Position numbers and translations under genes: made by a program
Assembly (NCBI GenBank): GCA_036172245.1
Contig: JAYWIR010000079.1
Coordinates: 62,001 to 126,000 of the forward strand
DNA length: 64,000 nucleotides
Source: Raillietiella orientalis
Taxonomy: Eukaryota
Direction: 5' to 3'
Part shown: positions 3,001-53,800 of the stretch, piece after piece
Numbering within the stretch: position 1 is the first letter of the stretch
How the letters are laid out: each line of letters opens with the position of its first letter
Notes under the pieces: generated by a model
What the model was told of the DNA's origin: nothing
The model's database searches: none
What the model saw: only the letters and a program-made list of their open reading frames with translations

Positions 3001-4073
3001 TGCCACTTGCATCCCAGAGACTCCTTGTCTGCTCCTTGAAAAAGAGGTGGATTTTCTGGTGTGGATGGGGGACAGGAGAGGGACAGCGATTGATCCAGGC
3101 TAGCAGGGCACTTCCACGTGTCTGATATCTCCCGCTCAGAGCGACGACGTTGTCCTCCTGAGAAGCACAGGGAGCTCTGGTCTTCGGGCGAAGACGCCGT
3201 ATGATGCAGGCACTCACAGGAGGAGGTCGTCGCCACAAGTGACGCTATGAACCGAGGCCGACGACAAAGAGCCGCCCGCCGAGCAGGCGCGAATTACCAG
3301 TTGCCGGCAAGCGTTCTCCGCGATCCTCGCATAACTTCCTCGCACAGAAGGGGCTGCTGCCCCTCTGCATCTCTCCTTCGATGCTGCACTCCTTCGAGAG
3401 TTCAGCATCCGAACTGCTGAGACCAAACCGTGGGTTCCAAGAAAAACGCATCGGCGGACTCCAGTTCCGACGCGCGGTGAAATTCCTACCGAGTGCCGGC
3501 GCCTCCAACACCGTTCCGCACCCGCCCTGCTTGTTTTTCCTAAGGAAGGGGGCAGAAAATGGAAGAGCTCTTGGGAAACACAGCGGAAGAGGCGAATAGC
3601 GGAAGCTGAAGGGTGATGGGGAGAGGTGGGGACAAGGACCTCGGGATATCTGTGGATAAGTGGACGGAGATCCACTTTTCCTTTTTTTTTTCGCCTCCCC
3701 GCTTTCGTGCAGGAAGGCAAGAGTTCTTCGGAGACATCTGGCACGCTCCGGCGCTGCCTTGCGGCAGTGAGTCAGCCTGAGAGCTGTGCCAGACTTGTTA
3801 AGGAAAGAAGGGGTTCGAGAAAACGAGCCTTCTCTCCATTTCCACAACACCGCCGCCTCCAGCTAATGGACCCGAAACAAATTGCGAGCCACCCTTAAAT
3901 CGGGCGGATCTTTTCTGCATGCGGCCATCGTGAGCCATTGTCGTCGTCGTTGTCGTCGTGTCTCGGAAGCATCAACAGCCCCAAGAACGATTTCGAGAAG
4001 AGATCGAGTTGGCATCTGCGGCCGTCGTATGGAGCGAATGCTGCTGTCCCCGAGGAAAAGCGTCGACACTGGC

Positions 4074-4472
4074 ATGCAAAAGCAAGTGTTGCTGGCAGTG
4101 AAACTGATAACCAGATGCCTCCGGAAACACCCAGATTCCCGATTTATAAGCCCCGAGGAGATGGAAAGGTTCCAGGAGGCTCTGATCAAGGAAATCACCA
4201 TTTTCCTTACAAACTTTTGGCACGAGGACGATCCGAGGAGGGACTCCGAGATGAGGTGCCTCCGAATGAACTGCATTCTGGAAAGCATCATCCGTTGCGC
4301 CTGCATGTCGTGCAAACTCCACGACAAATTTGTACTCCGCCTCTACCCAAGGGAGTTAACTGTGTGGATCGACCCCGACAGAGTCAGGTTCCAGCGGGGG
4401 GAGCGCAGCCCCGTCTACTCGCTGGAGGAGTGTTCAGAGAGCTCCGTACCGCACGCACAAGAGGATCTTTGA
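4074..4472 (+). CDS. BTG/Tob (APRO) anti-proliferative family protein, divergent; domain uninterrupted by introns; in-frame upstream ATG at 4029 also possible
   Basis: Translation MQKQVLLAVKLITRCL...MERFQEALIKEITIFLTNFWHEDDPRRDSEMRCLRMN...LYPRELTVWIDPDRVRFQRGE follows the BTG/Tob layout: N-terminal M..E/Q..AV helix, Box A-like (HW.P..P..GS.YRCIRIN) and Box B-like (LP.ELTLWVDP..V..R.GE). The paralogue cannot be assigned and the 3' end is uncertain (see findings). Confidence 0.85.
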   Translation: MQKQVLLAVKLITRCLRKHPDSRFISPEEMERFQEALIKEITIFLTNFWHEDDPRRDSEMRCLRMNCILESIIRCACMSCKLHDKFVLRLYPRELTVWIDPDRVRFQRGERSPVYSLEECSESSVPHAQEDL

Positions 4473-7400
4473 TGAAGAAAACAGAGATGGGGAGAAGAAA
4501 GAGGATTTTGGGGATCCATCATTCCCGGAGGACGCCATCGCGGCCCGCTCGTGGACGGACCCCGCGTCGAAAGCGGCCGACCGCAGCCAAACTTCCCCGT
4601 CATTGGTGCATCGCCGGGACCGTCCAGGTTGTTTCTTTTTCTTCAGGGAGGGATTGGGTAGCGTAAGCGTAGGTGCCAGCGAGGACATGAGGATTGCGCT
4701 CCTTACAGAGCAGAAAGGGGAGAGGATAAGGATTCGGACTTGTTTTGGGAAGCCACCGCAGGCCGCGGTCTGAAGCTTGCTGGTGGGAGGCCGTTTGGTT
4801 CCGGACGGATGTCTCCCCTACCCATTGTGATTCCTTTCCCTTTCCTCCCTTCAGGAAGTGCGCGCGCGAGGAAGGGAAGGTCGGACAGGGCACATCACAG
4901 TCTTCTTCCTCAGGAGAGACAGCCTCCCGACCCGTCTCGGAGATGCCAGTTTCGTTTGGATAGTCCCAGGAGCTCGTTACCCTTTTTGATCTGGTCAAAA
5001 AGGAGAACAGGAACAGAGGTGCACCTCCAGGAAGATCTGCCAGCGTTGCGAGACCCACGCAGCTCCGGAGACCCCGCTAAGAACCGAATGTTTGCTCACA
5101 ATGGCTAGCCCGCCCAACGGTCCGCAGTGAGTTCGGCGGAAAGTCTTCAGGGACCATTGACCTGAGCTCCAGTGGTCAAAGATGGATCAACACGTTCTCC
5201 AGGATGGGATCATCTCCCAAAGCGAAAAGTGGGTGCAGTCGTATAGCATACTCTTCGTGGTTGCGTCCTCCGATCGTGTGTCGTATCAGTATTGCGTGGG
5301 TAATGTGATGTAAGACCGCGGATCACAGACACACAATACGTTGACGCTGCACGCGGTTATGACCCAGGCATACTCCTTTGATCCCCCTCACAGTAGCGCA
5401 GCCAGGTTAACAGCCTCGACCTCGAGGAAATGTTGAATAAAAGCAGCTGGATGCCTTAGAGGAGGAAGGACAAGACCGTAGGCTCTTCTCTAACCAGCCT
5501 CCCTCCGTCCAGAAATCGACGGGTGTGCCTCCTACACTTCCCTGACCTCCAGATGCCCTCATGACTTCCGCAAAGATTTTCCGTACCCTCCGTCCTCCGT
5601 CCCAGAGTGGAGAACTAACTTCCTCCCCAGTATGGTGTGTGAAGGATTCCGTCTCGACCATGTGGTCTTTTCTTGTCCTTAGCAATTTAGCACGCTCCGA
5701 AGTCCTTTCATAAGGTGGTTTGCCTCTCGATCAAGTCTACGGCGCCTCGGGCTTTGCGAATGGAATGAGAATGCAAGGAGGACGCCGTAGGAACACCCTT
5801 GCATGTCGTTCGGGCTGGAGCCCGCAGCCACTAGTCGGGAGTCTAGCGAGGAGTGCGCTCGTTCTCCTCGATAGACTCCGGCTTCGAATCGCGCCTTCCT
5901 CAGTAACTAATGGCTTCATTGCCATCTTCGCAGAAAACGATTTGCAATGACACGTGTGGGTGTGAGCGGCAGCGGTGTAGCACTGGCACACAAGGTGCTC
6001 GAGCTCGAGCGCAGGCAGGGAGAAGGGAACCACAGAGTGGACTTTGTAGTCAACTTGCTTTCGGGGATTAAATGTAGAAAGCAACTCACCGGAATCTGTT
6101 TACTCGTTCTTTTAGAACACATGCGCCTCCATGCGGAAGCTTTGTCCATCACGTACCAGATTTTTAGCCAGAGGCTTTAACCTACTCCCCATTTCAGGAA
6201 TTCTAATCTGATGAGTGGTATGAGTCCCTCCTGACCTTAGGTGAGAAGTTCCACTTGGCAGTCCATAATTTGGCTTTCCGGGAGCTGAGGGATACGATTC
6301 CTTCCCAATAGTAGGGGAGGGAAGAGGACAGAGGTGCGAAGGAATGGCAGTATCGACTCGATTCTGACGATCTAAGCTTTCCCTGGATACCTATCACTAA
6401 GAGAATAAAGGATCCGTGAGTTGTTGGTATGACTCCGGAATCATACCGACAATTGTTGCCCATACTGCCGGGTTCCTTAAAACAGTTCCCGTATAGAGGA
6501 CATTTACGTATCCTGAGAAGCCGTTTCTTCGTCTCGCGGTGCCTGGAAGACCCAGGTACACTTCGAAGATCAGTGAAGTGGACAGTGAGAAGAAGTGCTT
6601 GAAAAGTCGGACAGTCTGTAGAAGAGCGGAGCGCCATGACTAGGAGCACAAAAATTCTGACGGCGATGCTGCGTGCTCCTGAGCACACAACCTAGTCGAC
6701 TTCGTAAAGCGGGACAATCCCTGGAAAAACGGGTGTTAAAGCGCGGAACTCGCTTGGCACTTCCTTTCGTCGCTGCTTCTCTCTGCAAAGATCTGCTTCA
6801 ACGGCTGCCCCTCGTGTCTTCCCATTGCCACTAGGGAGCTTGTTGTGATGGCCATAGTATCGGAAACTCCTTGTTTCTGGGTGAGTAAACATACTCGCTC
6901 AATCTTGTTAATTACCATTAATTAACAAATCTTCCTTGACACTGTCCATCATTCCATCCGACTTGAAAGAGACCCACCCTCTAGTCTCTGCCTTTGAAGC
7001 GATAGAGCACAAGGCTTGAGGAGGGTTGGCTTTAAAAGTTACCCACACGGCATTCCCAGACAGCCTATACTCTGCCCCGGGTCATCGAACCAGCATATCG
7101 GAAAGAAATCCCGTGAGCTTTCGAGATGCTGTGTGCTTGCATCTTCCGCACAGAGCCATGGAAGCTTTCTTCCTGAGCGCTGCCTCCTCCTTGCCACTCG
7201 CTTACCTAGGGAGCGCGACCGAAATCTCTGTTGTTCGCTGCATCTGTTCCTCTTCTCGCCTAGATGCCTCAGTGCACCTGCGCCCAAGCTTGAATTTCCG
7301 CGCATTCGTATCTCGTATGCGCGCCCATCTTCTTTGGAAGCAGAGAGCAGGAAATGTATCCCAGATGAAAGCGCCATACGGTCGCAACCTTAGGAAGGAA

Positions 7401-10400
7401 CGGCTGATCCCAGAGAACGACTGTACAAAGCTGACGTAGTAGAACAGGGAAGCAAGCTCGGAATTCGTTATTGCTGGACCGATTCAAGCAGAGGTCGACG
7501 CTTCTTCGGCAAATCGCCACCTCGGCAGCTCTCGGAAGGGGGCAGGCTGCCATCTGAATGTGATGAGTGTTGAGGAACTTCGAAACGTAGAGGAACTCCC
7601 CGAGAACCACAGACGTCGACGCTTGCGGATGGAAGTACGGTTCGAGGACCATCGCGTCGCACAAGGTCCATCGGATCAAAGATTCCCCATGTTAATCATC
7701 CGCAATCAACAGGATACTTTATGGAAGAAGCAGCCCGTCTTCGGCAGTACTCATTTCCAACACTCTGACTGACCGTCTGCTTCCTCAGCTGAAGTTCCTT
7801 CCCAGACGACCACACTTTATGGGATCAATAGCTCCGTTAGCATTGTAACCCTGAAGGAAAAAAACAATCCGAAAAAGAAATGTGACCACCACAAAATAAG
7901 CGTGAAGCAAGGGCATTTACGGCAAACGCAATTAAACTGGCTTATAGGAGGCGAGACACGGCTACGGAGAACTGGTCAGTTTGCATTTAGAGAAAGCGTT
8001 TTTGTTTTTTTTCCCTAGTCTGTTTTACTTCTTCTTACTTGTACACTACAAAACGAACTACATTTCGCATTTGCAGCATACGAGTGCCTGAGTCCGCGTA
8101 CATCCCAGTGAACAGAGTTCTCAACAGTGAAAATCGCATCGTCTGCGTTTAAGATTAGTTGGGCACGCGGAGGATTCAGGCCAGAAGTATGGCACGGAGA
8201 TTTCCGCGCCGGGAACGCGCGGTCCTTGTTTGGAGGAGGGCACGAAAATGCCGTTCCTACGGAATTCACGATTCGATTCCTTAACTTCGTATGGCACTTT
8301 TTTTCCCCTCTCCCTCAATGAGTATTCCTGTGAGCAAGTTTCTTTGTTTTTTTGGATCGTCACGTTGCTACGAGGAAAATTTTCTGCGCAAATTTTGCAT
8401 TCCCAGTCTTGACTATACAGATTCACCATCTAATCAGATGCTAGTTGATGAGGCTGCTCCTCTACGGGTTTTCGCCTCCTGGCAGGAACGCATCGATTCC
8501 AACAAATACAAATTAAAAAATAGTGAAGTGCTACTGCTAGATACTGCCAAGATTGACAGTTTCCTTTCGATGTTAAAAAAATCACAAGCTGAACGATTAG
8601 CTTGAAGCTAAGCATTCTCTTTCGCTAACTGCCACAACAGGCTTTCGTAAATACCCTGCAGATATTGCCTTCAATTTTCTAAAGATTTGAAGAAAGAACA
8701 AAGTTTCCAAGGAAAAGGAAAAGCAGATGTTAAGCTTTCCAATTCATCATTTCTAAAAAACCTTTGATGAGATCTCTGGAAATCTCTTACAAGGTGGATG
8801 ATTGTCTCTTATATCATTCAGACTGCCTCACAGACACAGGCATCTAATCTTGTTCAGCTTATGTTATATGAAATGACACGGTTATGCATCACTTTGGATT
8901 TGCACATCATCGCTCATGTCGTGATTTGCTTTATTGCTTTTTATAGTTAATATGCACAATTCATCCTCAAGATCTTCCTTTCTTACTAGATTGCAAAAGA
9001 CTGTACGTAAGGTTCTGAATTCGAGATGACTAAAAGCATGCAGACTCACAGCAGATGAAGGTTCCATCCTTATTTTTTTATTTTATGTGGTTAAGTACAT
9101 GTAGGCAGGGATTTGGTTCCATGAATAGGCAGAAATAAAACAGTGACATGATCTGGAGAAAATGTGTCCTACTAGCCATAAGATGGCATTGCTTATTGTG
9201 TTGATGGAGTCGCAAGGTCACTGAGAGACTCGGCTGTTTGCATGCCTCAGCAAGTATGTGTCCCAATGCTGACAATTGTTGATCAGCATCATTTTTGAGT
9301 AACACCTCTGCAGAGTCCATGTTATTGTACTTCTGTAACGTTGCCTGGCTTGATGAAGCAAACGTGAAAAGCACCATCCACGTCTTCGAATCCACAACTG
9401 ATGCAAGCAGCATTCTCAGAACATTTCTGGACGTGACTAACGTTGTGAAGTCCGAAATGCATTTTAAGGGCTAAGAAGTTAAGTCGAAAAAGGTTCCACG
9501 AACACGGAGGTTTCCGGTGAATGTGTGTATCCATGTAACCGTCAAAAAAGAAAAAAAAAAACGAAAAATTTTCGACCCAGAGAGATGCGAGATTTGTTTA
9601 TCACATACGAACGATGAGATGACATGACTTTCGTACGCGTTTCTTTCAAAGATGGCTACTCATTAGAATAAGAGAAATAGTGGAAAAGGAAGGAACTATG
9701 CAAACAGGAAGTGAAATCACCTTCTGCAATATTTTCAATGAAATTCGGTTCAGCCTTGGAGAGTCTCATTATAAACAGATGCATGTCAAAAATGTCATCT
9801 TGAACATCTTTACATCAGTCGAAATCGTTTTCCTTCCATTCTGCTCCAGTAAACTCTTTTCCTAAACTGAGAAATTTTAGACGAAAATTCGGAGTGGGAA
9901 AACGAAGGAAGAAGTCTTCCTCGACCCACTTTTCCTACAGCTGAACTCATGAAGAATGAGTCAGAAGATCTACTTCCCTCGATACCTGGCAAACAGTGCT
10001 CAGCAGCGTCAGATGAACAGGAATTTCAGAAAATTTAGCACTGCCTTCGAGCAGTACTGGGAATTCTGCTTCACAGAATCAACGCTAGAAGCAAAAACGC
10101 TCTGTGGTTTAAAAGAGGCAGTCATGTGATAAGGGGGATCGGAATAGGCATGGAATACACATTAGGATTATAATACACCGGATCCTCGAGAAAAAAATTG
10201 CTTTTAACGCTCATCTGTAGGTGGAAATGATTTGACTTGTAAGGCACAGTTGAGATCTGTGAGCAGAAGATTAATGGATGCCACCACGAATAATTTCTGC
10301 CTACTCAAGTGTCGAATTTGTTAATTGAGCAGATAATTGCTGCAACAGGGACTGCTTAGCAAGGGATGATTGTGGTAGTTTCAGAAACAGAAAATCAAAA

Positions 10401-25812: not shown

Positions 25813-28800
25813 ATGATAATGATGGATGAAGAACATGGTTTGAAAGAATGTGAAGCTTATGTTCAGAAACATCATATACAACATATACTGAAAGATTGCA
25901 TCGTCCAACTTTGTGTGCTGAAACCAGAGAACCCTTTGGTTTTTATGAGGCAATATTTTCAGAAATTGGAGAAGGTATAAGTCGGAATGATCTGAGTATT
26001 TGCACGGATAAGTGAAATATAAAATATGTGTTGCAATCTTGTATAAACAAATGCTTAAGAACGTGTGCAATAATGTCTCAGAAAATAAAGTAAGATCGAA
26101 TTTTGATCCTCGTCGCGTTCTGTTTGGTATAACATAGGTTGTAACCATAAAGAAAGCCTTTCTTAAGGAAACCATTTTTGTGCTTGAAAAATTGCTCATC
26201 TAACTACCTTTCGCAGAAAAACCAAACAAAACCAAAGAAAACAAAAACCCCCAAAAGTTATATTACACAGTTTGCGGGTAAGAATAATGTAATGAAGCAG
26301 GGAATCGTTGTGTGTGCAAGAAAAGAAAATTTTAATAATTTGTTCTGTTGGATTCTCATATGAGTACGTGTTTCCGTATGCACGTACACGAATAACGCAC
26401 ATTAATGCATCGTGTTTATAAGAATCTCAAAACTGACTTTTAAAATCGTTTGCATTTTAAGTGATAAAAATAATTGTCAAATGAAATATTCGAAAAGAAG
26501 TTGTGATGTTATAGAATCTTATAAATGTTAAGGCAGAAGATTTCTAATCAGACTAAATGACATTAAGTTCTTATTCCAACTGAATGCATAAAGTAAGTGT
26601 TGGTGTGTTATCTTTCAGCCCTTTGACAATTTGTTGGACGTATTACTTTGAACCTAGATTTGTATGACCAATTCTGAGGATAATAGTATAAGTTTTTTTC
26701 ATATGAGATCCGAAGATTTCTGCACAAGGTCATGAAACCAGCTGTAACTTAATGGGAAAATTAGTACGAAAATTCTGTTGCTTTATTATGTCCAGCCCTT
26801 TGTTAAGTGAAATGTTTTTAGAGTACTGTCATCATGCAGACCAATTTCTGTTCAGAAATGTCTTCTTCATAAAATCAGGAAAAAATAAATATCCAGGATT
26901 TAGATAAGTTGATTCACAAAATGGGAGATATTCTTGATTGGTCATAGGGGTATCATGATTAGAATAGCTTGCATTCTTGTTAATTGTTTTATATATCTTT
27001 TAAAGAAGTTATAAATTGTGCCCATATTGTGCATCTTATAGACATTTAAAGTTTCACAATCTGACAGTTAAATACCTGAATTCAATTTATTATGTGGGAA
27101 GCATAGAAAAGCAATTTTTGGCATCCTATCAAAAAATGACTTGTCATCTTATGATAAAGGCAATTAGGAAATTTTTTAATAAAATCATTCTTTGTTGTGA
27201 ACTTTCAAAGAATTATTATTCTTTTCACAATATAGAACCACTTTGCATTTGCATTTGTATGCTTACCCAATAAAATTTTATTAAGGCATAAAATTTGTAC
27301 TTTGTGAAGTCTTGACCATACTTGAAGTTTACAATCTTACTGAAAACATAATCAGATTGCAATCTATGTTTTTAATCCAATTGAGGTTTTTGAAGTGTGT
27401 CTAAAAGTGAGTTTGTGAGCTTTCGATGGAAACAGAATTAGGGATTTTCTTTTGTTTACAACTTTTGAAAATCATGGTTTCAATATTTTGTAATTCAATC
27501 AGTATTCTTGCAAAACATTGTTGCACACCTCACTAAAAATTCAAAATCTAAACTTTTACTTTTTTGATGATTCATTCTAGATTGCTGTTGGTTTTTGCCC
27601 TTTACTATGCAGCCCATCTCCCTACTATAGTTTCTGTTTTAAAATCAGTACGAGAGTTTTAGTCTCAAAGTGAATATCCTTGGTTGTTATTTAGTCTATT
27701 ATTTAGTCCTTGTTGTTCTGGAAGTCCACATTTTGTATCTTGAAAGTATTTCCTTTAATGCCCTAGAGAAGATTCATAGATCTTGGATCTGTTTCAACCA
27801 TAAAAAAATAAGGCTGTTTAAAAACACAGTTTTTGTAATTGTCATGTTGTGATAGGTGTCTAAATGTTACTGTTCAAAATACTCTTTAAGGCTGTAAATT
27901 TGTAATATTTATTCATTATTTGTGTATTTAAATTTTTTTTTAAATTGCCTATTCGTGTGTGTAAGGTGTGTGTGGTTTAATGATTCGAGATTTGTTAATA
28001 TTTAATTATTCCTTTATATAATATAGTTGCATTTATTTGCACTGGTCTGTAAGCTATGTGCCAGGCCATTCAATTCGAACTGTGTAAAAGAAAGTGGAGC
28101 TATTGCATCAGGAAATGTCAAAACGATTTTCATTTTTTTGGCAAAACGTTTTAATTTGTTCCAGTATTTGGAGCGACGTTTAATAGATGTGCAGTTGTGT
28201 TTTTTTTCTTCTCACTTTTAAGTCAGATTTGTTTGAAGTTTTGCAAAATACGCAAAAAGCTATTAAAATGAAGTGTACTTAACTTTTCAAGTAACAAAGA
28301 AAGTACATGTTCTATTTAATGTGACAGTTAATTTCACTTGCAGTTAAGTTTCAAGTGTGCCTAAATCCACGTTTGTTAATTTGGGAAGACTCAAAACCGT
28401 AAAAATGTCAATATAGTACGAATGCAAGTAGTGTTTCCGCCTTCATCGAGTAAAATGTTTTGTTAAAAGTAGCGGTTTTCGCCCGTAAGCTTATGTAGGA
28501 CATCATGATTGCGTATCTTTAATGAAGGTTTTTGCCATTTGCAGTCGAAAAAGTGACCAGGGGTCACATGTGCGTGTTGTGCATTAGATGTACGAGTAAG
28601 AAAAAAAAAAAAAAAAACAGAATTGCTGTATTCAAAAAGAAATTTAGTTCCTTTCTTAACGGGTCAACATCATTATTGCAATTACGATGTGTATTTAACA
28701 TGTGTGTTTGCAGTTGTAGTTGTCCTCTGTGTGTCTCTGCAGTATATAGTAACGAGTTGAAAGACAGATGGATGCATTACTTTAACGGGCAGGTTCCCCT

Positions 28801-31800
28801 AATTGCGAAGAATATCCGTTAGACGTTATGCAATTTTCAACATTTACCTGGAAATTAGTGCTTATGCCCACATTAGGAATGGTGTAATGACGAAGCTTTC
28901 AGAAATATTTGAATACAAACACAGAGCATCAGAAAGTGTTTTGCATGGTAAATTCGTATGCCTTAGACATTTAGGGTCTTTTCGTTCAAAGACGACAACG
29001 TAATTTTTTGCAGGACCGTATCAGTAGAGGGAAATGTAGAACAAAGGGGAGTACTGTTCCGTCGAAGTAGCAAATTGCCTTCTCGTTTCGTTGTCTAATT
29101 AGAATTCTCTATGTTGTTGTTTCAGCATTTCCATTCAAATGAAATCTAGCAAAATATATCCATAAGACTGCAAATAAGGTTTATTATTATTTTTTTTTGC
29201 CAAGTCTCATCGCTATATTCTTTTTGATTCGTTATGTTTTCCGTATTTTAGTGGGGGGGGGGGGGGAATCACTTTTCAATGATCAACAAACTTTGTTGAT
29301 AATCTTAATGCATTTGCTTCCAGTGCTGAAAGCACGCTTCTCTTCAGTATCAATGGTCATGAAAGCAAAGCTATAGGATGGATTTTTGAATTTAACACTG
29401 AATTCGTCCTACTCCGCCCAAAACCTTTTGGGGGGGGGGGGGGCATGTTTTTTCTTTCTTTTTTCGTTTTTTGTAAAAAAGGCCACAAATAGTTGGTTCG
29501 TTAACGATGAGGTCAACAAGAGTTTTGTTTCTAAGTGCTTATTTAAGTTTTCGATTGCTTCAAAATTTTTTCATGACCCAGTGGAATACAGTTTTCCAGG
29601 AATGTGTTTCGTTTTGAACTCTGTTTTTGTAAGGTTTTTTTTTCTTCTTCTTCCTCTTCCTCTTCGTCTTTTTGCAATGCTGATCCTGCGGTGCGGTTGT
29701 GCTGCAATGTCCACCCCGTTTTATAATTTTGTGCATATTTAGTGAATATTTTTTATTCTCGTTTTGGTTCGTATGACGACGGTGAGAGTCGGAGAATCTT
29801 TTATTCATCAGTATTTGAAGGCTGAGCTAAGAGATTAAAGCACAGCCTCAGCAAAGCTATGAAACCAGTATCCCGGTCAGTGGGTTTTTTGTTTGGTAGT
29901 GCAAACGGTGAGATGCCGAACAAGATTTACAGCTTTTGACAGCACTTTTTCCCTGCGAACGAGCGAGTTGCGAAGATAAATCCTACTTGGAGGAGGAAAA
30001 TGAACGCATCGTCTGGTTAATGATTTGAAATGGCTGCGCAGGCAAACTGCTCTGCGAGGTCTTGATATCGAATTTTTCCATGGAGTCTATTGTTCATGTG
30101 CGGAAGCTGCTCCGTGTGCTCTCAATTAAAGTACTTTTGTGTTCCTCGGAACTGTTCGTGACGGTGCTTTGATATGAAACAAAATGCTATGCATACCTTG
30201 AGAAATTCCAGGTTTTGCACTTCTTTGCCATGAATTACCATTTAGTAGCTTCGCATCCGTTAGTTATTTGAGTGAATGGGTAATAAGGTTAGCTTCGGAC
30301 ATCCAAATGTTTTTCGGAATATCATTGACAGAGAAAGAAATGCGTTTTCCAGGGGCTCTCTCTCTAAATCCAACGCTCCTTCTGTCCATAAGGTGAGTTT
30401 TGTTTCCATGAAAGCTAAGCATATGTGTACACTTCACGCAATATAGTGCCCATATGTAAAAAGCTGTTTTGTATAATACGTGCGTGAAACAACCTGCGGA
30501 TGTACACACGCGTGTGTGTGTATATCTTAATTATTAATGAAATTGTAAAAAATTCAGGGGGTGGGGAGGGGACAGGGATTTGCTGATTTGATGATGTTTC
30601 TTGTAAGCAGCTTTCAGTTGTAGGTCAAAGTTGTCAGACGTTTCTCCGCATTCTGTACAGCGCAGGCTGAACACGGTGTTATTGGGCATGCCGTTCAGAG
30701 ATTTCTTTGAAAAAAAAACAACAAACAAAATGATGTCGATTTTTATTTATTTCATTAAATTGATTTCGAGATTATAGATTAGACTGCACGATCAAGTTTA
30801 TTATTTGCATATGAATTTAGTAGGCTTTCGCTTTTTCATCCTGTAGTCATGCTGTGTTTCATTTTTTTCACTGATTCTGATCGTCAGTGATCAAAATGAT
30901 CATAATGAGTAAGGAATTATAACTTTCGAAAGCGATTGTAGTAGTATCGAGTCATACTGTTCGTAGTAGTAGTAGTAGTAGTAGTAGTAGTGTGTCAATT
31001 TTTGTGCGCATGAACTCTTCCTAGTAAATGCGTTTATTCACGAGTATGATTGCTAAGTGGATTAAAAGTTTGCCTTTTTTTTTTTTCTATTGCCCGAGTC
31101 GATTTCCAGATTTCTTTGAAGAGTTTATATTTCCTTACAGTCTACCGAATTACATGATATTGATGACTATGCAGTTCAGAATGTTCAAGATTTAATTCGC
31201 GATGAAAAATGAAATTTTCATCTTTCGTTTGTCCTTTTGGAAAATGGAAGTATTAGTCGGAATGACCTCAATATGAAAAGATAATTTTAAAGTATATGTC
31301 AAGAATTGCAATTAATTTCGCTCCATGCATGCTTTTTCTTTTTCTTTAATGTAAAAAGAAAGAATCGTAAAATGAATAATGGAACAAGTGAACTAATAGA
31401 TGGACACAAAAATAAATGGGAACAATATTGAAGACTGTGTACATAGAATCACAATACAGTATTTTATCTTCTCGAATGAACAGTGTTGAACGTTGCATTA
31501 TTTTTCTATCTCCCCCGCTCCCCCCCCCTTTCTATCAAGGTAGGAGTGAATGGAAAGTGTATGTGCACGTAAAAGTGTTCATTTGATAGTTCTTGTGCAG
31601 TCTGTGATTTTTCATGCTGCATATCCTTGACTTCCGTGTTCGTGTTTCCAAAGAAATTCTAAAGAATTTGTGAATCATCAGCCAATGCGTGACAAAAGTT
31701 GGGATTTTTTCTTGTAATTTTATGTTAATTACATGGCAGTATTTGCAATCATGCAAAAATGAGATAATATTTGTTTGTGTGATCGAAACTGTAATGCATA

Positions 31801-34009
31801 TTTCTGTCCACCTTTTTTTTTTTTTTTTTTTTAATCGTGTATCAAATTCTTTTTCATTAGAATTATACCAAGAATTAGCGCATGCAGATTTTTTTTTTAA
31901 AATGTGATTGATGCAAACACTGTGTGTGGTAGAAGGAAATAATAATTCAGTGTTTGTAATGCTCGATGAGTAAGCGTGCAGTGTGTGAATCGCAATTTCT
32001 GCAATTGTGTTTTTCTCGCAGTAAGCAAAGGAAAATGTTGGCATTTTTCCAATTTTGTGCATTAATGGTATTATGACGACCAATTATTATTAGTGGCAAT
32101 TGTATTTTAAGGAAAAAGTTTGCTTCTTTTGAAGTTTTCTCAGCACTTTGCATGCAAAATACTAGCTAGCCTACGAAAGCATGCATCATCCAAGTGTTCT
32201 GTAGTTTTATACATTCAAGTAACATATGAATATGAAAGTATCTGATAGTTCATGGAGACAATTATCAGCAATTTTACTAATATGTATAAGCATATACCCC
32301 CCGTATTGCGACTGTGTCTTAGTGTGACTAATTTAAACAGTTATATTTTGAGAGTTACTTTTACAGAAAAGTACCAGCAGCTATGGTTTCACTGATTACG
32401 CAGTGCTTTTGCAAATGTTTTACGTAATTGGTGAATGTCATTGCTTGCTTTCTGTGTCTTGTATTTTAATTCATTTCGCAAACATTTCTGATTGAATTTT
32501 AATTTCTGCATAGATTTTTAAGATTTTACATTTTCTAACCGTTATATTTTTGAAACTGTGGATTTGTAACGCAAAATCTCCACAATCATGGTGAGTGCAC
32601 TTTTTTTTTTTCTTTTCGTCGAAGTTTCAAGTTGTCACGATGTAGAAAGTAATAAATCGGTTCTTAAGCATGATTCCATTGTATTCATGTTTTTATGATA
32701 GTAAACAGTACCTGTGTAGTGGTACCACGACGTTAGGTTGGAATTTTTTATTATTGCATATTCTTTACATGATTTCAATTTTTGTAGCCAATTTGTGTAG
32801 CATTCAAAGTCTTTAGATAGTCATGGATATAATTTATTTAGTAATGTGCAATGCTTTCAAGGATCAAAATTGATGAGGTATTAGGAGTAGTTGTGTTAAT
32901 GAATCATTTCAGGAGGCATCTGTCGCATCAAAACTTTCAACATCTGCCGAAGATGCTGATGATTTAAGTCCAGTGCCAGCTCAGGTGCATCAGTCCTCAT
33001 GGAGACGGGGAGGAATTTCTGCAGAGCCAATGACAGAAGAAGATGCTGCAACATATGTAAAAAAAGTACATTACTCTATTTTGTTCCTTTTCAGGTTTTG
33101 AATTTTGGTATCCCTTTTAGGTTGTTCCCAAAGATTACAAAACCATGCAAGCATTAGCAAAGGCAATCGACAAGAATGTTTTATTTTCTCATCTAGATGA
33201 AAATGAAATGTCAGATATATTTGATGCCATGTTTCCAGCAAATTTTGTACAAGGTGAAACTATTATTGAGCAAGGAGAAGAAGGGGATAATTTTTACATT
33301 ATAGATCAAGGGGAAGTAGAGGTAAGTAATGTTTCATAATATCATCAGGATTGTAATCTGTTCACAGGTATTTGTAAATGGGAATTTAGTCACTACTATA
33401 AGTGAAGGAGGTAGTTTTGGTGAGTTGGCTCTGATCTATGGAACTCCTCGGGCTGCAACAGTTAAAGCTAAAACAAACTGCAAACTTTGGGCAATTGACA
33501 GAGACACATATCGTCACATTCTGATGCGGAGTACTATCTGCAAGCGCAAACTCTATGAAGCATTTCTTTCTCGTGTGTCTATACTTGGTATGAAGGGATT
33601 AATGCTGATGTGTATTAAAGTTTTTTACTTAGAAAATTTGGATAAATGGGAGCGATTAACCATAGCTGATGCTTTGGAACCTGTGTCCTTCAAAGATGGT
33701 GAAGTGATTGTGAAACAGGGTGATCCAGGAAGTGATTTCTTTATCATTTTGGATGGGACTGTCACTGTTCTACAACAGCGAGCAGAGGGAGAAGAGCCAA
33801 TTGAAGTTGGAAAACTTGGTCCATCTGATTACTTTGGAGAAATTGCTTTGATGCTTGATCGTCCTCGAGCTGCAACTGTTGTTGCTAAAGGCCCATTGAA
33901 ATGTTTAAAATTAGACCGTGCTAGATTTGAGCGTGTACTAGGCCCATGTGTGGATATTCTCAAGAGAAATATCCAAAAATACAATAGTTATGTCTCATTG
34001 TCTGTGTGA
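25813..34009 (+). CDS. Pka-R1: cAMP-dependent protein kinase type I regulatory subunit (PRKAR1/Pka-R1/kin-2 orthologue), 5 coding exons, ~370 aa
   Basis: Exons 25813-25974 (D/D domain [23 protein letters not shown] with both RI-type cysteines), 32913-33065 (pseudosubstrate RRGGISAE), 33121-33321, 33368-33587 ([15 protein letters not shown]), 33633-34009 ([15 protein letters not shown]; ends YNSYVSLSV*). Phases are consistent (1113 nt). Confidence 0.97.
29253..29443 (+). repeat. Two G14 homopolymer tracts (G-quadruplex-capable) in PKA-R intron 1
   Basis: G14 at 29253-29266 and G14 at 29430-29443. Confidence 0.8.
30276..30392 (+). CDS. Pka-R1: Putative alternative first coding exon of PKA-R encoding an N-myristoylation motif ([39 protein letters not shown])
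   Basis: In-frame TGA immediately before the ATG, 39 stop-free codons, and a consensus donor AAG|GTGAGT at 30393 in phase 0, matching the phase-0 acceptor at 32913. Confidence 0.7.
30963..30991. repeat. (GTA)9 microsatellite
   Basis: Perfect gta tandem repeat read directly. Confidence 0.9.
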
Positions 34010-34482
34010 ATGGCAATGCATGATAAGTAATGTTGCCCACTGGCTGGGCTGTGATTTTGTTGTGCCTCCATGTTCTGTATTCTCTGTGGCAGCTTGTAAT
34101 GCACTGTAGCTTTGAGAATGTCTTTGATCTGATTACTGTGTAGCAGATCAAGAATATGACAATAAAGTCTCAGCTTGAGTGCATTCAGTATTTGGAAGTA
34201 CTGTTTTTATGATGTAGAAATATGACAATGCTTGTTCTACAGGTGCAGTTGTTTTTATAAATAGAATAGCAGTTTAGCCATTAAAGCGTATTAAATTATA
34301 GAATCACAATAGCCACTTGTATAAGTATGTGTAATGTTTTTCCAACTTTGTGTAATTTATGTACATAAAAAAAAAATAGCCTCCTGTATAATTTCAAAAG
34401 TATAATTTAAAGATTAAAGATACAGGCATTTTTGTTTTCATTTACGTATTCTTTATTCTTGTTGTCTAAACTAAAGTGAAAC

Positions 34483-44872: not shown

Positions 44873-47800
44873 ATGATGGAGTTTATTTTTCTTAACGGAC
44901 TGTTTCCTGCGTTGTTATTACTTACTTCAGATGTACAGAGAAAAGCAGTTAGTACCTTGTCGGAAGGACAGTCAAGTAACTTGTTCATTCAAGGAGTGAA
45001 TGGATTTGAAAGAGGACAACACCAGTTACGGGATACTATCACTAAGAGTCCAAAGCATTCTTTGTCCAAGAAAAATGTTAACAAAGAAAAAGGCACTGAA
45101 ATGCTTTCAAAACCCAATATTATCTTAATCATAACCGACGATCAAGATGTAGAACTAGGTAAGACAAATGCATTTTGTGATCTATATAGTTAGAATGCCA
45201 TTTTATCTTGACGATTCCTTGCATTTTATGAAGAGTATGCTCCATTTATAGCGGAGACTCATATGCGCTATTCTTCATTCTTTCTTTGATTAACATCCCC
45301 TTTTTTCTTGGCTTCTGCTTCTTGGCTCATGACAATTATAGCATGATGGAAGTCAAGTAAAACCTCTTCGTTGCAAACCACCATTATAATCGTTATCAAA
45401 ACATCACTGCCCATGAGTATCGGAATAATCGTGATTTCTCTGTCGCAGAGTTCAATCTCTAAAGTTGAAAAAAAAAAAAAAAAAAAAATGCCATAAGGAT
45501 TTGCAAATCGAAACATTCGAATGCATCGTTGCCTATCATGTGCAGCAATTTTCTTTCCCCATGCACTTGACGATCTTCGAGTGTTTGTAAAAATAAAAAA
45601 AAGTGAAAGTTTTCTTATTAAAAAGATTTAGACAGAGTTTTGCAGTGCTGGATGTATTTGGTCAGTTGGTATGCCAGAAGATATTCGTAATCAAATTACA
45701 TCAAACTCTAATTCTGTATTCCTGTGGTCGAACAGTGGTTTACCTAATAACGGCAATTCAGGGAAAAGAAGGTTGGAGGAATCTTGAAAGATCTGAGCAG
45801 TGAAGTCGGTGAATGTTCTGTAAGATTGTGTCACACAAAAAGCATCCATCATAAGCGATTTACATCAGTATAGAAAAGTCTTCAGAATCATTAATGAAGG
45901 TTGTAGAAAGCAGTATTCTTAGATGTCATTCTGGTCGGCATAAGAAATACAATCATTATTCCGGTCATAGTATTCTCTAAGTCTCTAAGTCTGCTGTGCT
46001 TCTGGTGTCTGTGTACAATTTTGAGGTTGCACTCTTGTGTATCGCCGCGGAGGAACTCTTACCAGAATCCGAACACATCGCAGTACAATACTCTTGTCGA
46101 AGAGGCAAGAAAGAAAAGCCAAGAAAAGTTTGTTGCTTCATGGAAGAAGGGTATTAAATGATGTTCGTTCACTGAATAAGTCAAAAGTTATGGCATACTT
46201 TTTACCGAAGCATATGTGGTTTGTGGTTTGAAATAAAAAAAAAAAAAAAAAAAAAAGTTCAATGGAAATTCTCGTATCATGAGCTTGCCATACTCATCTC
46301 CTTTAGTTGCATTCTATTTTGTTTTCAGATCCTAATACCGTAAGTTTTCCTGATTTTTGTTGTATTGGTCAAGTCTATTCTATAAACAGTGGGTGCGCAA
46401 TATTTCAATTCTGTGATATTTTCTTTAATTTTTTAGTTTTCTGTTCTTAAACGAATGTGCTTCTTGTATTTCTGATATTTGTTTACTATCAGATATATAT
46501 TTTATTGTTAAGGCATGAATTTAATTCTGTTCTGCCTAAATAGATTTCGATAGCACCCAGTGCATCCAATTATTTTCTTTCTTGTCATTAAACTGGTTTA
46601 GTAGTAACTGGTATAAAGACCTGAGACATTTCAAATGTTATTTTTAGGATCACTGAATTTTATGCCTAAACTGCAGAAATCATTGCAGAACGAAGGAGCC
46701 TTTTTTCCCAATGCATACGTCACGACTCCGACGTGCTGCCCATCTCGAAGTTCGATTCTGACGGGCATGTATGTGCACAATCACAACGTCCATTCCAACA
46801 ACGAGAACTGCACAAGCCCTTTCTGGAGAGCTACCCACGAAACTAAAACATTCGCCACGTATTTGCAAGATGCAGGATACAGAACAGGTTAGATAGCATC
46901 AGCACCTCCACCCGTCTTCCCCGATTGCGGGTCTTCTGCGTAATGGTCTGGTTCCACGAGCCTTACTTCCTGCTTCCTTAAATTTGGACATGCATTCGCT
47001 GAATTCGGCGTTGAATTTTGATTCAGCGTCGTCAGTAATCTGTGTTCGGATACGGTATCGCATTTGCATAATGCCCATGTCCACGTTTTCGGTTTGCTTC
47101 CCAAATGAAGCTTCACTGTTGGCATCGTCAGCAATCAGTGGTTTGATGTTTCCAAAGACATCGATGGCTGATCTCGAAACGTATTTGACGGTAAGAAAGC
47201 CGAAGATGCACGCTCATCTTGACAGCGCGCGGTTTTTATGAGAATTCCGCGCTTTTCATTCAGGGAACGTCTTCGAGACGGAGCCAATTTTGCTCTAGTC
47301 TTGTAACCGGGAAGCTCATTTTAAAGATCAAGTTAAAGTTTGTGCGGCTTCCGTAGAACAAGTGAACAGCTTCCATGCTGTTGAAATTCCGTTTTTATCT
47401 TCCGCAGCAAGCGGCTCGTTCCTGTGTTCAGATTCATAAACTAAAGTGTATGAAATGAATAAAGGAAATGATCTTTCCTGCCGCAGATTTTATATTTCAT
47501 CGTCTGTTTCTGGAAGTATGAATCGCAGTACTTTATCTTGGATCCAGTTTTAATTTCTGATTTCATAACGTGTGTTTCAGTTATTCTTGTGAACTTTACT
47601 ACATTTTTTTTCCCCCTTTTTTATCGCGCATTTGTCAACTTCGCAGTTTCATGTTCCCGTTCGTCGTGTTTTTACTGTCTTTTGGGAAAATGCGTTCTTG
47701 TATTAATGGTCACAACGAAGTACCCAGATGTATGAACTGGACTTTGTTTTCAGTGAGCATTCTTTCGAAACGTCGTTTGGCCACATGGAAGATCATCCAG

Positions 47801-50800
47801 ATTTTCACCTCCAGAATAGTTATTTCCTAAATCTAGATTTTGTCAAATGCGTATTGTCAAAGCGAAAGAGCCTTAGAATACACTAAGGAGTTCTTTCCAG
47901 CTCTTACGCGACATATGAAACACAACACCAAAACAAAGTAAAACGGTTCGGCGTTTGAACAAAGACATACACTTTTTTTTTTAAAAGGAAAGCAATTATA
48001 CCTCGGAAATGGGGAATTCAGGATGATGCTAGGGCTGCTGAGTATTTCTTCAGTTCTTGGGCAAATCACAGACAAGCACACTTGTATATTTTCTTCGAGA
48101 GGTACACGAATGTTAATCTTCATGTTGGTGAGAATAATAATTCAAGTTTGCACAGCTTTACTTCCGCAATAGGGTAGTTACGCAAGCTTGTGATGCAAAG
48201 TGAAGCTGCAGAAGAATTTGCAAAACATTCTGTGCAATCTTTGCAGCATTGAGTTTTCTGTTTGCAGATTTATACACTGGTACAGGGTCCGAGATGTTTT
48301 AACATCACTGTTGCATAATTTCGAATTCCTCTTTACTTTTCGTCGTGAGCGAATCACTCTTCCATCCAGGTTAGCTCGGTGACGAATTTGTAATCCAGTC
48401 ACCGTTCTCCACTGATGACGGTGGAAGTGGTAATTGCGATTATTCTGGATGAATTAACGGAGCCTTTCTTCACTTACGAGTTCAGTCAAAAGAGAAGATT
48501 TTCGGATCTCTATCGGGGACAGGTTGCCTCATTTCAATTTGGTTTGCATGTGAGTGGAGAAATTTTGTCAATTCGAATCGGCCATATTTTCGTTTCTTCC
48601 CCACGTACTCATGAGCGTCTCGTTTCAAATCCTGAACGGAATTCCAACTGCGTATGCCATCTTCTCAAATTGGAATTCGGAAAATCTTCTCGATTGGCAA
48701 AAGGGAAAAAGGACTCCTTGAGGCTCGCCCGGTGTCGAGCAATACTTTTGATTCTCCCGACAATCATCTTGCTTCCAGAAGTGGAGCAACCTCTTTGAGT
48801 CCAGTTTTACTGTATCCGCACCGTTGAGATGATTCGTGATTTCGGTACCTCTTGTTCACCGGGACCCTGCTCTCTCGGTTTGCAGCTGTGGTTTCCGACA
48901 GCTCACCAACCATCATGATTCCTCTTTTTCCCCGTTTACGCAAAAGCTGGATCCCAGAGAATGATAATGCAGTCATCTAGGATGAACCATGGGGCGAGCA
49001 AATGTTAGGGTTTACTTTTATCCCGTGGCAAATGTCAGGATTGAGCATGGGTCAAGTCATTGAATGCATTTTTGCTTTTCGTTCTTTCCGAGAACTCTCT
49101 GCAGAAGAAGGATCGGATATTCTTTGTCAGTGAAACCAACGGAATCAGAAACTGTTCGTTGCTGCCGAAATCCGCAGATGCAGTCACTCGAAAAGTAATC
49201 TGAGCTTTCTTTATCCCTTCACCCGCCTTTTCTGATAACGTTGAGCTTGCCAGTAATTCTTTTACTGCCTTCATCAAGTTATCAAAAACTGACATCTTGT
49301 CGATAACTCTCGCCTCCTGTTTCTTTTACAGAGATTGGAAAGAGCTTCCTGATTGTTTGCCAAGAGAGTAAAAGCAAAACGAATACAACCCACAACCACA
49401 CTTTACGCTTTATTTCCCCCAGTCCTGTTTCTCGAAAGCTACTTGTTTCTTGACTTGAACTTAGTAGTGAGGATATACGTTTTCCCTCACCGAAAGTGAG
49501 GATGCGTTTTGCACTTTTCTAAAATGTTTCTAAAACAGTTCCTTCTAAGTGTGTGTGTTCCGTGAACGGCATGTGATTCTTTACTTTAGAAACAAGACAT
49601 TTTAAGTGAAGGTTAGTCCACACCTTCTTCCAAAATGAAACAGAGTTGGTCACCCATCCGTCTATTGCCAAATTTCTTCAGACCCCACTGTTCCACTCTT
49701 TGCTTGTAATCGATGATCTCTCATTTCTCCGACTGTGTGCATGAGATCCTGGGATATGGTCGTCTCTTGCCCCCTCTCTACTAGAGTTTACCGCCGACGT
49801 TTGCTAAGCATTTTCATCCATGTTTTGCATCAGATTTCACGTACGCACGTACGCATGAATTTGTAAAGAGGTCGGTACTAGCCTATATCGTTCACTTTAA
49901 AACGAGATTTTCGATGCTCCCGATAAGTGCACAGAATGGAGTAAGGGACTGAAACAGTGCGGTTTCAGACCAGATCGCGAAATTCAGTTCCATGCAAGAA
50001 GGCCGCCTCATAGCGTTTCAGCAGGAAAGTATAACCGCGCAACTTCGATGAAGCAAGGCGAGGTTTTCGCATGTTGAGTTGGCATCGGGCTGGGAGAAGA
50101 AACTTCGTACTAACCTGCAACTGCGTGGTGCGGATGGACTTTCTCTCGACGTGTGTGCAGTTTTGACGAAGTTTACGATTCCTTCGCGTGATCCCTCGTC
50201 TCGCCACTCAACTTGCCGTGGATGATCGTGGAGTTCTCTGTTCTTTTGGCAAGGCTTCCGTAACCGGACGTTCACGGTGCGCTGCGACGTTTCGGTTCCC
50301 GTACCTCCTAATTCCGGTCTCCAGAAAGCCCATAAGCTCGCTCAGGACTTTGACTGCCGAAAGCCTGCTCTGTAGAGTTCTCCGCGGAATCCGATGTTCC
50401 CAAACTTTCAAGCAAGAATACTGTCGTACTCAATGCTCGTCTTTTTCACATTTAGAACATAGCATAAGTATCAGATTTCCCACGATCGAATTACGAAACT
50501 CTGTGATGAGATGCGCCAGGCACCATGGACCAAAGTTCGCTTCGTTTGTAAATCTTTTCGATGCTTCTACCTGATGACAGCTCAGCAAGCTTGCAAGCTC
50601 GAATAAACCGGCGACGTTCCATAGACTCCAGTGATTTCTTTGTGAAATACAAAGTTATCATTCAAGCTCATTGATCTTCACGACTTTGCCGATTTGAAGC
50701 GGAATCGATATCTCTGAATTTCAAAGTATTGAAAGCACCTGGATGAAGGGGATTCTTCATCCACACCGTTCTGTGAGAGACCGATTCAGTTTTATCCGAA

Positions 50801-53800
50801 CTCTCATGCACACAAGAGAGAAGCGTAATCACATTGATCTTGCAGTTTTATAAATTAGAGTTGGATGTGGGATCGATCCGAATCTTTGTATCACTTTGCA
50901 GACCTTTAACTGTAACACTGTGTAAATGCTTTGATTTGCGTGTTGCGAGAGTCTCATTCCCTTAAAGAGTTGTGGAACACTTTGAATGTTGATCCACTGG
51001 TTGATCTATAGCGAGTCCAAATTCGTTTTTTCCTTACAACTATGCTGAACACGAACAGTGTTCAGCTGTTCGTTTTTATTTTCAAACAGCTAGGAAGTAT
51101 GTGCTGTAATGAAATATGGAAGACAAGATCGGAAGCAACATTTTTGTTTTTGCTACAAATAGAGCGTTTCACCTCACCTGTCAGTACAATTTGCCCACGG
51201 CGAGGAATGCTGATTCACAGTTTCGAGAGGAATCCATGTATTACATCTGAACCGCGTAAAGCGTGCTTTGCCTTACAAAGTATTGGAACAAAACTTTCAT
51301 AGTTTACAAACCTGAGAGATGCTAGCGAACAGGGCTCAAATCAGGCATTCTCATTGGGGATCGAAGGTGTGAGGGTTTTAGACTTGGGACGGGATCGTCA
51401 ACCTGTGTACGGTTTTTATATGGAGTCTTAGCGCTGAGATGTACGTTAAAGCATTGCGTACCACATCACACTGATCTAATGGGAAAACCCATCGAAACCG
51501 AATGCAGCATCGTTCGTTAATTTAGAAATGGCCTAATTTTGAAATAGGAAATCTAGACAAGAAATCGCAAAGCGGGAGAAAATTGTCTGGGATTTTTCTT
51601 AGACTCTGAAACTAAACGCTTTTGTGGGAGAAAAAGGTGCTGAGGTAGATAGATACCTTGCTGATAAGTCTGTACAAGTGTTTGGCAGCATCGTTAGGAA
51701 GGAATCCACCTGCCCCTGAGATCCGATGAAAAGAGTCGTGAATGTGCATTTAATGATTCATATTTTCGGTCGATTATCAGTTCATTTTAAATGAGGGAAC
51801 AGAGACGGAAATGATGGTTATTTCCAGGTGTTACTGATTAGATTGTCTAAGGGAATGTTAGGTATTATTGTTATACTGAGTGTTTAAAAGTGATGTGCTG
51901 ATGCATTATTCGCACGATCAAATGGAACTTTAGTCCTGGGCGTGTGTTAATTCCACTGACGTTAGAATCCACATACAGCAAGGCAATAGATATATGCAGA
52001 TAGTGATCCCACGTGCTCACCTTATGGAAAGTCGTTTCTTTCGGTGAGAGCTTGGATTGCGTTCCATTACCCATTTGGTGCAGTACTTGTAAGCGTACAG
52101 ATATGCGTACTTCTATGTATTCATAAGCCCGTTCTCACTCATTCATCCCCTCTAACTTTTTGTTAATTGAGTACAAAATTGTGATGAGCTTTTGTTCCAC
52201 CAGCATATTTTGGGAAGTACCTGAATAAATACGATGGCAGCTACATACCTCCAGGATGGTCGGAATGGTACGGGCTGCTGATGAATTCCAGGTTCTATAA
52301 TTACACGCTGAATATCAACGGCAGAAAAGTCAGGCACCGATTCGACTACGAAAAGGTACAGATGCTGGGTTTGTCTGTAGTGGATGAGTACTGAGATGTA
52401 CGCTAAAGCGATGCGCACATCACACGGATCTAATAGGAGAAAGCATCGAAACCGAAAGCAGCTTCGTTCGTTAATTTAGACATAGCCTTAATTTTGAAAT
52501 ACGAAAGCGGTCTGAAGTGATGAATTTGCATGCTTCACAAGAATGCTCGATCTGCTCAGCCTATTCTGTCTTGCTCCACCTGGGTCTCAGGTTGCCTGGT
52601 GCAAATTCGAAATTTCGCGTGAGCAGTGTGCTCCTTGCTCCGTCCTCGAAGCGGCCCTGTGCGGAAAAGGTTCTGGGTTTCGGGAATGGCGGGGGAAGGG
52701 AACAACGCGTTCCGGGCTTCCGACGTCACACATTGTGTCGTTTCTCCCCCGCGCGCGAGCCTCGAGATGCATCCCGGACGGGAAGGTCGAGGGGGAGCTG
52801 CGACGCGAAAACAAGCGGCACAAAAAGCTCTCTCGCTTGGTTGCGAGCTTTCGGAAAAGTTTCGTGAGGGGACTCCGTGCGAGACCAAGGAGCAAAAAGT
52901 TGCAGGTTCGGCGGTGCTCCTTGCCCTACCGACCTCATTCCCAACAGTCTTGCCATTCCCGCACTCGCGTCTTCCGTCACGCGGCCCCGGGAACCCTCAC
53001 GTTGCGCGAGGAATCCTGACGCTTGAGCGGCTGGGAAGGAGATCGTGGATGCTGCCTCGCGAAATTCTCGCCGCGTCGGCCTGGCTCTGTTCCGCGTCCG
53101 TAGCTCGGATCTTACGAAATGGGGACTTTTGGGAGGGGGAAAGGAGGTTGAGAAGAAAGGGGACGGGTGGGGAAGAATGCTGCCATCGTGTTTTGTTGCT
53201 TTATGACTCGTCCTGCTCCCATATCCAGGATTACTACCCGGATTTGATCGTCAACGACTCCATATCCTTCATGCAGAAGCACAGGCAGCGCCACTCGGAC
53301 GTGCCCATCATGATGGTTTTGAGCTTCCCTTCGCCCCATGGACCCGAAGACTCGGCCCCTCAGTATTCGCATCTTTTCCACAACATCACTACGCATCGGT
53401 AACCACCTTCAGTCTTACGGTTTTGCGGGCAGAAGAAGCCTCGCTCGAGGAGAGGTTTATCGTGTCTTCCGCACCTTTCCGTTTTCCAGGATCCCATCTT
53501 ACGACTACGCCCCAAATCCCGACAAGCAGTGGATTCTGCGCACGACGGAACGCATGGAGCCGCTCCACAGGAAGTTCACGGACATATTGATGACCAAGAG
53601 GCTGCAGACTCTCCAGAGCGTGGACGTGGCAGTGGAAAAGGTTCGTGCTGCTGCCGAGTCGGCAGTTTTCAATTTGCCTCCCGGCCTTTCCCTCCCTCTC
53701 CCGGGGGCTGTGTGAAAAACGCAATCTCGTCCCCGCCATGTCTTTCTTTTCTTTTCCCTTCTCGCCGCAGCTTTGTGCGGAGCTCCGGAACCTGGGCCTT

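Follow-up and report, generated by a model that had tools for sequence, protein, structure and literature searches.

A candidate alternative first exon with a predicted N-myristoylation signal in the type-I PKA regulatory-subunit gene of Raillietiella orientalis

The window analysed in this study is a 64-kb stretch (64,000 nucleotides) of the Raillietiella orientalis contig JAYWIR010000079.1 (assembly GCA_036172245.1, positions 62,001 to 126,000 of the forward strand), and it carries on its + strand a gene for a regulatory (R) subunit of the cyclic AMP (cAMP)-dependent protein kinase, PKA. Within the long first intron of this gene lies a short open reading frame (ORF) beginning with ATG which, judging from its sequence and position, is probably a genuine alternative first exon, here termed exon 1b (Table 1). 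The fuller reading, that this exon is real and that its product is also a real substrate of N-myristoyltransferase (NMT), giving an R subunit without the dimerisation/docking (D/D) domain, appears likely, with somewhat less assurance than the exon itself. Exon 1b is judged to be probably genuine because the same type of exon is found in several distant arthropod lineages and because the number of such features expected by chance is about 0.03 or less. It is best filed, on present comparisons, with an annotated but experimentally uncharacterised class of arthropod isoforms.

The gene is that of a type-I PKA regulatory subunit, as evidenced by the D/D domain, the inhibitor site RRGGIS and the tandem cAMP-binding domains, all of which are present in a canonical product of 370 residues. 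The D/D domain (RIIa; Pfam PF02197, E 3.4e-12, residues 20–54) is encoded wholly within exon 1a, and the cyclic-nucleotide-binding domains are recognised as two tandem stretches of PF00027 (E 3.9e-35). The inhibitor site in exon 2 has the type-I form (R-R-x-G/A) and not the type-II form (R-R-x-S), the feature by which the two types are told apart (PMC1769443). When exons 4–5 were used as the query, the top named proteins in the 120 of 2181 matches listed were type-I R subunits with 70–77% identity, so that no close annotated relative turned up in the collections searched, and a search with exon 2 placed its linker closest to the linkers of insects; the organism is probably an arthropod. The three introns that follow exon 2 are 42–55 nt each, as opposed to the 6938 nt of intron 1. 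The intron between exons 4 and 5 (33588–33632) is 45 nt long, free of stop codons and a multiple of three in length, with the read-through frame open over 33326–34009, and its retention would place 15 extra residues between the two cAMP-binding domains.

The preliminary description of this locus had claimed an exon inside the 6.9-kb intron made up of an ATG directly preceded by an in-frame TGA, 39 codons and a phase-0 donor, and reading of the sequence bears this geometry out. The donor at 30393 (AAG/GTGAGT) agrees with the consensus at 9/9 positions and is no further from it than any of the gene's four real donors, and a second in-phase donor (AAG/GTTAGC), which is weaker, follows codon 4 of exon 1b. 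Both exon 1a and exon 1b finish in phase 0 and exon 2 opens in phase 0, and therefore either exon can start the same frame. The predicted exon-1b product has 355 residues compared with the 370 of the canonical form, and retains the linker, RRGGIS and both cAMP-binding domains. As the RIIa domain is encoded by exon 1a only, a transcript starting with exon 1b would be without the D/D domain, a loss that had likewise been claimed and that the Pfam result upholds. Past the donor, the exon-1b reading frame meets a stop 54 nt downstream, giving a read-through ORF of 56 aa.

A Pfam scan of the 39-residue exon-1b peptide returned no family match. The peptide contains seven Lys/Arg, two Asp/Glu and zero Cys residues, and its N-terminus (G2 N3 K4 V5 S6 F7) fits the NMT pattern, which was applied in a PROSITE-type form (G; any residue but EDRKHPFYW; x; x; one of STAGCN; any residue but P). 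The earlier statement that the start of the peptide matches the NMT consensus is thus confirmed for this form of the pattern.

Table 1. Coordinates, within the window, of the PKA regulatory-subunit gene and of the features associated with candidate exon 1b.
Feature	Position	Strand	Remarks
Exon 1a, canonical first coding exon, 54 codons	25813–25974	+	Donor GAGAAG/gtataa, phase 0; from sequence and splice context
Intron 1 of the canonical transcript, 6938 nt, housing candidate exon 1b	25975–32912	+	
Possible alternative promoter or 5′ leader	29600–30275	+	GC 0.41–0.44, CpG observed/expected ~0.9–1.0
In-frame TGA immediately 5′ of the candidate start codon	30273–30275	+	
Candidate exon 1b, coding part, ATG and 38 codons	30276–30392	+	Stop-free; N-terminus MGNKVS
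Splice donor GTGAGT of candidate exon 1b	30393–30398	+	CATAAG/gtgagt, phase 0
Exon 2, linker and type-I pseudosubstrate inhibitor site RRGGIS (33003–33020)	32913–33065	+	Acceptor aatcatttcag, phase 0
Exon 3, start of cAMP-binding domain A	33121–33321	+	
Exon 4, remainder of cAMP-binding domain A	33368–33587	+	
Exon 5, cAMP-binding domain B and stop TGA (34007–34009)	33633–34009	+	

The rarity of this combination was estimated from a census that took in both strands of the window and every ATG-initiated ORF of 10 aa or more (n = 1588). The myristoylation pattern is fitted by 12/1588 of these ORFs and a phase-0 GTRAG donor is present in 81/1588, and only one, candidate exon 1b, combines the two. 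With the features treated as independent, the expected number of ORFs with both is ~0.61 per 128 kb and ~0.03 in the intron-1 strand. The strict donor GTRAGT occurs at 26 sites on the + strand of the window; at five of these a phase-0 ATG-ORF of 39 or more codons is present, and one of the five sits inside confirmed exon 3. Intron 1 contains three GTRAGT sites, and simple arithmetic places the stricter joint expectation, for an ORF of 39 codons or more that has a GTRAGT donor and also fits the myristoylation pattern, well below 0.001.

Comparable isoforms occur in other arthropods. The comparison set of 172 type-I regulatory (RI) proteins drew on 120 of the 2181 matches of near length to a read-through query of exons 4–5, on 41 exon-2 matches and on 20 cluster members. 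A D/D motif together with the inhibitor site was found in 29/172 of these proteins, and 126/172 are D/D-less proteins with a Met start and the inhibitor site, some of which are fragmentary or read-through models. Among these 126, 15 start with MG, nine start with MGN and 13 fit the myristoylation pattern, this being a biased sample in that 4 of the 13 came from cluster look-ups aimed at MG proteins.

The MG forms include those of the odonate Ischnura elegans (X2, XP_046404424.1, MGNRVSCKK...), the copepod Tigriopus californicus (X3, XP_059099364.1, MGNRNSTK...), the sciarid fly Pseudolycoriella hygida (MGNASGS...) and the scorpion Centruroides vittatus (X2, XP_067128547.1, MGALMTR...). A cluster at 90% unites contig protein P0174 (MGNLATR...) with proteins of scorpions, spiders and horseshoe crabs, and two more contigs in the same chelicerate cluster have an MG(A/S)LMTR start (e.g., MGSLMTR...). 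Drosophila immigrans, D. kikkawai (KAH8322235.1), D. birchii and D. jambulina share the start MGNQLSVN, in full MGNQLSVNSIQDAVIDRF..., and Glossina fuscipes KAL9904260.1 starts with MGNSLSVN, in full MGNSLSVNQLQGALVDRL.... The preliminary description had pointed to insect isoforms with an MGN start and a downstream (V/I)DR motif, and these four Drosophila proteins and that of Glossina are of exactly this kind. The contig proteins P0172 (360 aa on 1175 nt) and P0174 (365 aa on 2674 nt) probably represent spliced transcripts, since contigs of these lengths are too short for the several introns typical of these genes.

All of the MG forms meet the linker at the boundary of the D/D exon, just before E-A/Q, and in Ischnura the isoforms X1, X2 and X3 are identical from this linker boundary onward. 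The segment before the linker is 17–41 residues long in the odonate, copepod, sciarid and chelicerate-type forms, and 81–176 residues long in the dipteran MGN forms. Exon 1b resembles the arthropod MG(N) RI isoforms in having an N-terminal segment in place of RIIa, an MG start, a small residue at position 6 and the same linker boundary. Ischnura X2 also shares with the exon-1b peptide a weak E(R/K)N.FS..S block, but unlike that peptide it has Cys7, a possible palmitoylation site. The arthropod MG isoforms are known as database models or transcript contigs, with segments of 17 to ~176 residues, and literature searches found no paper characterising arthropod MG(N) isoforms without the D/D domain.

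In the dipteran isoforms of Drosophila and Glossina, residues ~8–23 after MGN form a conserved amphipathic stretch, SIQDAVIDRF(R/K)SVAL, which we take to resemble the helices of A-kinase anchoring proteins (AKAPs) that bind D/D domains. Should this resemblance hold, canonical R dimers could in turn be docked by a lipid-anchored R isoform. The exon-1b peptide retains only part of the dipteran pattern. A D/D-less model with an MG start (MGKALPGG...) also exists for a Crotalus RI-beta isoform, in which Lys3 breaks the myristoylation pattern.

Several observations weigh against exon 1b being a genuine member of this class, and most of them would be expected if it were a chance open frame, that is, a part of an untranscribed or unspliced intron in which ATG-GGT, 39 codons and an in-phase GTGAGT happen to coincide. 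Codon usage was scored with a log-odds model for which the 370 codons of the gene itself, a small and self-scored set, served as training data, and it shows no coding signal: exon 1b scores −6.3, compared with −7.5 ± 7.2 for the null and a mean of +13.5 for windows of real exons, and 40% of the 7626 open intronic null windows score at least as high, such that codon usage fails to set exon 1b apart. Short disordered first exons often appear non-coding. The start context of the ATG at 30276 is weak, with T at −3, and there are upstream ATGs at 30174, 30184, 30189 and 30230, within ~100 nt of the start, which would burden translation unless a transcription start or an acceptor sits near the exon-1b ATG. 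An upstream ORF of 13 codons (30230–30271), in another frame, finishes 4 nt before this ATG and is relevant only if transcription begins upstream of 30230.

Further points of this kind come from the intron and from the comparison set. Under a loose donor rule, intron 1 contains 13 ATG...GT candidates, 2/13 of which have at least 39 codons. The other long candidate (31416–31568, MGTILKT...) was rejected, having a weak donor (CAC/GTAAAA) and missing the myristoylation pattern. Because a second candidate of at least 39 codons is present in intron 1, an open frame followed by "a GT" is not rare here, and it is the consensus donor and the MGN..S start that distinguish exon 1b, not the length of its ORF. 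The MG form is also not universal, as there are many arthropods with multiple isoforms that are without it, e.g., Euwallacea X1–X5, and it must be added in favour of chance that the first reading of the sequence looked for precisely such coincidences.

The peptide body of exon 1b likewise lends little help. Ischnura X2 and exon 1b are identical at 5/6 of the first residues, MGN(K/R)VS, and local alignment of residues 7 onward paired ERNAFSRGS with EKNQFSESS at a nominal p of 0.0097, which is lost after correction for the eight comparisons made. The other seven pairwise comparators gave p 0.16–0.85, with nothing significant past the first six residues, and the IIDR/VIDR match between exon 1b and Drosophila, with p 0.16, is not significant. 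Against a profile of ten other MG N-termini, exon 1b scores 3.5 bits compared with 4.2 ± 1.6 for shuffles in which MGNKVS was held fixed, and 3034/5000 of the shuffles equal or beat it. BLASTP of the exon-1b peptide against the Drosophila, Glossina and Ischnura proteins gave zero alignments. A word search of 5.8 billion sequences, with the peptide as residues 1–40 of the 56-aa ORF, found two word-sharing candidates, none of which scored.

Set against all of this are the joint expectations given above, ~0.03 under the loose rules and far lower under the strict ones, and the fact that a coincidence would have had to hit MGN..S, the very start seen in annotated D/D-less RI isoforms of distant arthropods. 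A chance open frame is therefore unlikely in our estimation, if not negligibly so. With regard to the class as a whole, these comparisons suggest that position, the missing D/D domain and an MG(N)xx(S/T) start define it, whereas a conserved peptide body does not, and the MG exons may descend from one ancestral exon or reflect repeated recruitment of an NMT signal.

The exon could also be real and yet have another protein reading, through extra small exons, through use of the donor after codon 4, or as a regulatory or poorly translated leader, with no functional lipid anchor in any of these cases. The dipteran MGN isoforms hold many more residues before the linker than the 39 found here, the donor after codon 4 is in phase 0, the upstream ATGs and the T at −3 point to poor translation, and myristate alone binds membranes weakly, in a peptide that is without Cys for palmitoylation. 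However, when 20 alternative N-termini were compared with the window by tblastn, the dipteran extensions revealed no second conserved block in 30393–32912, nor did any of the others. A match of IRSSC with VRTSC just 5′ of exon 2 was rejected, since no acceptor at that place is in phase with it and the score of the alignment stems from its exon-2 part. The odonate, copepod, sciarid and chelicerate-type forms also have single short segments, within whose range of lengths exon 1b falls, and the donor after codon 4 falls well short of the strength of that at 30393, leaving a different protein reading distinctly improbable.

It is very improbable that the ORF has nothing to do with the PKA gene and belongs, as a fragment, to a mobile element or a gene nested in the intron: the intron is long and the region of the ORF has a GC content slightly above that of its surroundings, but the peptide belongs to no Pfam family, there is no second copy of 29000–30999 within the window, the ORF ends 54 nt past the donor, a phmmer search of 1.84 billion representatives matched only two repetitive proteins through four weak stretches each, which were judged spurious, and of the 596 pattern stretches that the 56-aa ORF matched in a scan of metagenomes, none was confirmed as a relative. 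The 50% clustering of the phmmer representatives would conceal alternative N-termini.

A genuine exon 1b would call on a promoter of its own, and the maximum of GC content in intron 1 (0.41–0.44), with CpG undepleted, lies directly 5′ of it. This peak gives weak support to a promoter, and counting against one is that the peak is not unique, the interval 29901–30300 tying 10th–13th of 390 such intervals by CpG count. More widely across the gene, the observed/expected ratio of CpG is 0–0.35 in part of intron 1 (26600–27800) and 0.1–0.4 over exons 2–5 (32800–34400), and it is near 1 around exon 1a and around candidate exon 1b (27800–31400), a pattern that would be consistent with methylation of the gene body in the germline from which two promoter zones are spared.

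In the textbook placement of metazoan PKA, AKAPs bind the D/D dimer of the R subunits, the D/D domain mediating both R-subunit dimerisation and AKAP docking. N-terminally deleted RI forms heterodimers with the catalytic (C) subunit (R:C), and in the usual animal holoenzyme it is the catalytic subunit that carries myristate. The work of Kalderon and Rubin of 1988 on Drosophila Pka-R1 reportedly concerns N-terminally truncated forms and not a lipid-anchor signal.

Under the reading favoured here, a second promoter inside intron 1 would drive the exon-1b transcript, and the donor at 30393 would be spliced to the exon-2 acceptor at 32913, common to exons 1a and 1b. The 54-residue D/D exon would in this way be swapped for a 39-residue, probably disordered, basic peptide starting with MGNKVS, from which the initiator Met would be cleaved and on which Gly2 would be N-myristoylated. 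Without the D/D domain, the product is predicted neither to dimerise nor to dock AKAP helices, leaving an R:C heterodimer, and myristate combined with a net-positive peptide may confer a weak membrane association, possibly tunable by phosphorylation of its serines, for which the preliminary description had named SRGS as a possible phospho-switch.

By analogy, the nearest tested counterpart of the predicted exon-1b product is the acylated PKAr1 of Toxoplasma gondii. This protein is described as having no AKAP-docking domain, as needing Gly2 for its peripheral localisation and as a membrane tether of the catalytic subunit. Green fluorescent protein that carries its first 15 residues goes to the periphery in a manner dependent on Cys and on Gly2, as judged by G2A mutation; the authors contrast it with the AKAP anchoring of metazoans (PMC6152992). 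The proposal for exon 1b is like this mechanism, which has been tested experimentally by the G2A mutation. Unlike exon 1b, the signal of PKAr1, a protist protein, sits at an N-terminus that is constitutive and not encoded by an alternative exon, with dual acylation at Gly2 and Cys5/Cys7 (PMC6152992). The exon-1b peptide is without Cys, and the likeness to PKAr1 is therefore one of mechanism only, not of membership.

Animal genes offer likenesses of another sort. In C. elegans, kin-2 is the single R gene and, in common with what is proposed for exon 1b, yields isoforms without the D/D domain, which are inferred to form no tetramers and to bind no AKAPs (PMC9692727; PMC3771449, citing Pastok et al., 2013), and where these two papers turn to PKA, it is for the catalytic subunit kin-1 only that they mention myristoylation. 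Drosophila Pka-R1, a member of the same gene family, also shows N-terminal diversity generated from the 5′ end, its splice variants with alternative 5′ exons being credited to Kalderon and Rubin, 1988 (PMC1769443). Full-text literature searches found no paper on a myristoylated metazoan PKA R subunit.

Were it true, a conserved isoform that exchanges the D/D domain for a myristoyl group would amount to a second, AKAP-independent means of positioning PKA, with a 1:1 holoenzyme, an arrangement for which the sources cited here give experimental proof so far only in apicomplexan parasites. As equivalent isoforms are annotated in Drosophila species, the idea is open to direct test in a genetic model. 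For the annotation of this apparently unannotated, arthropod-like genome, exon 1b represents a probable missing isoform, which is of moderate interest, and of more should the class turn out to be an ancient, AKAP-independent mode of anchoring. The most far-reaching version would have arthropods share an ancient second placement of PKA, comprising a promoter in intron 1 of the single RI gene, a myristoylated D/D-less R subunit holding one catalytic subunit in a lipid-anchored, AKAP-independent R:C heterodimer and a basic, serine-rich tail acting as an electrostatic phospho-switch, with exon 1b orthologous to the MGN exons from the chelicerate-type contigs to Drosophila; this we put forward tentatively, as possible and somewhat short of probable.

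Elsewhere in the window, a 6-kb block at 2000–8000 has a GC content of 0.50–0.55, and in it long open frames overlap on the two strands. Pfam gave no match for those of its ORFs that were tested, and the block may be a repeat, a foreign insert or a GC-rich gene. The next gene downstream of the PKA locus, on the + strand (44873–60000, e.g., 53594–54126), is a sulfatase, as judged from exon-like frames (Pfam Sulfatase, E 7.8e-10; SGSH_C, E 9e-08), and it lies partly in a GC-rich block (~52–56 kb, GC 0.51–0.53), the PKA locus itself being AT-rich.

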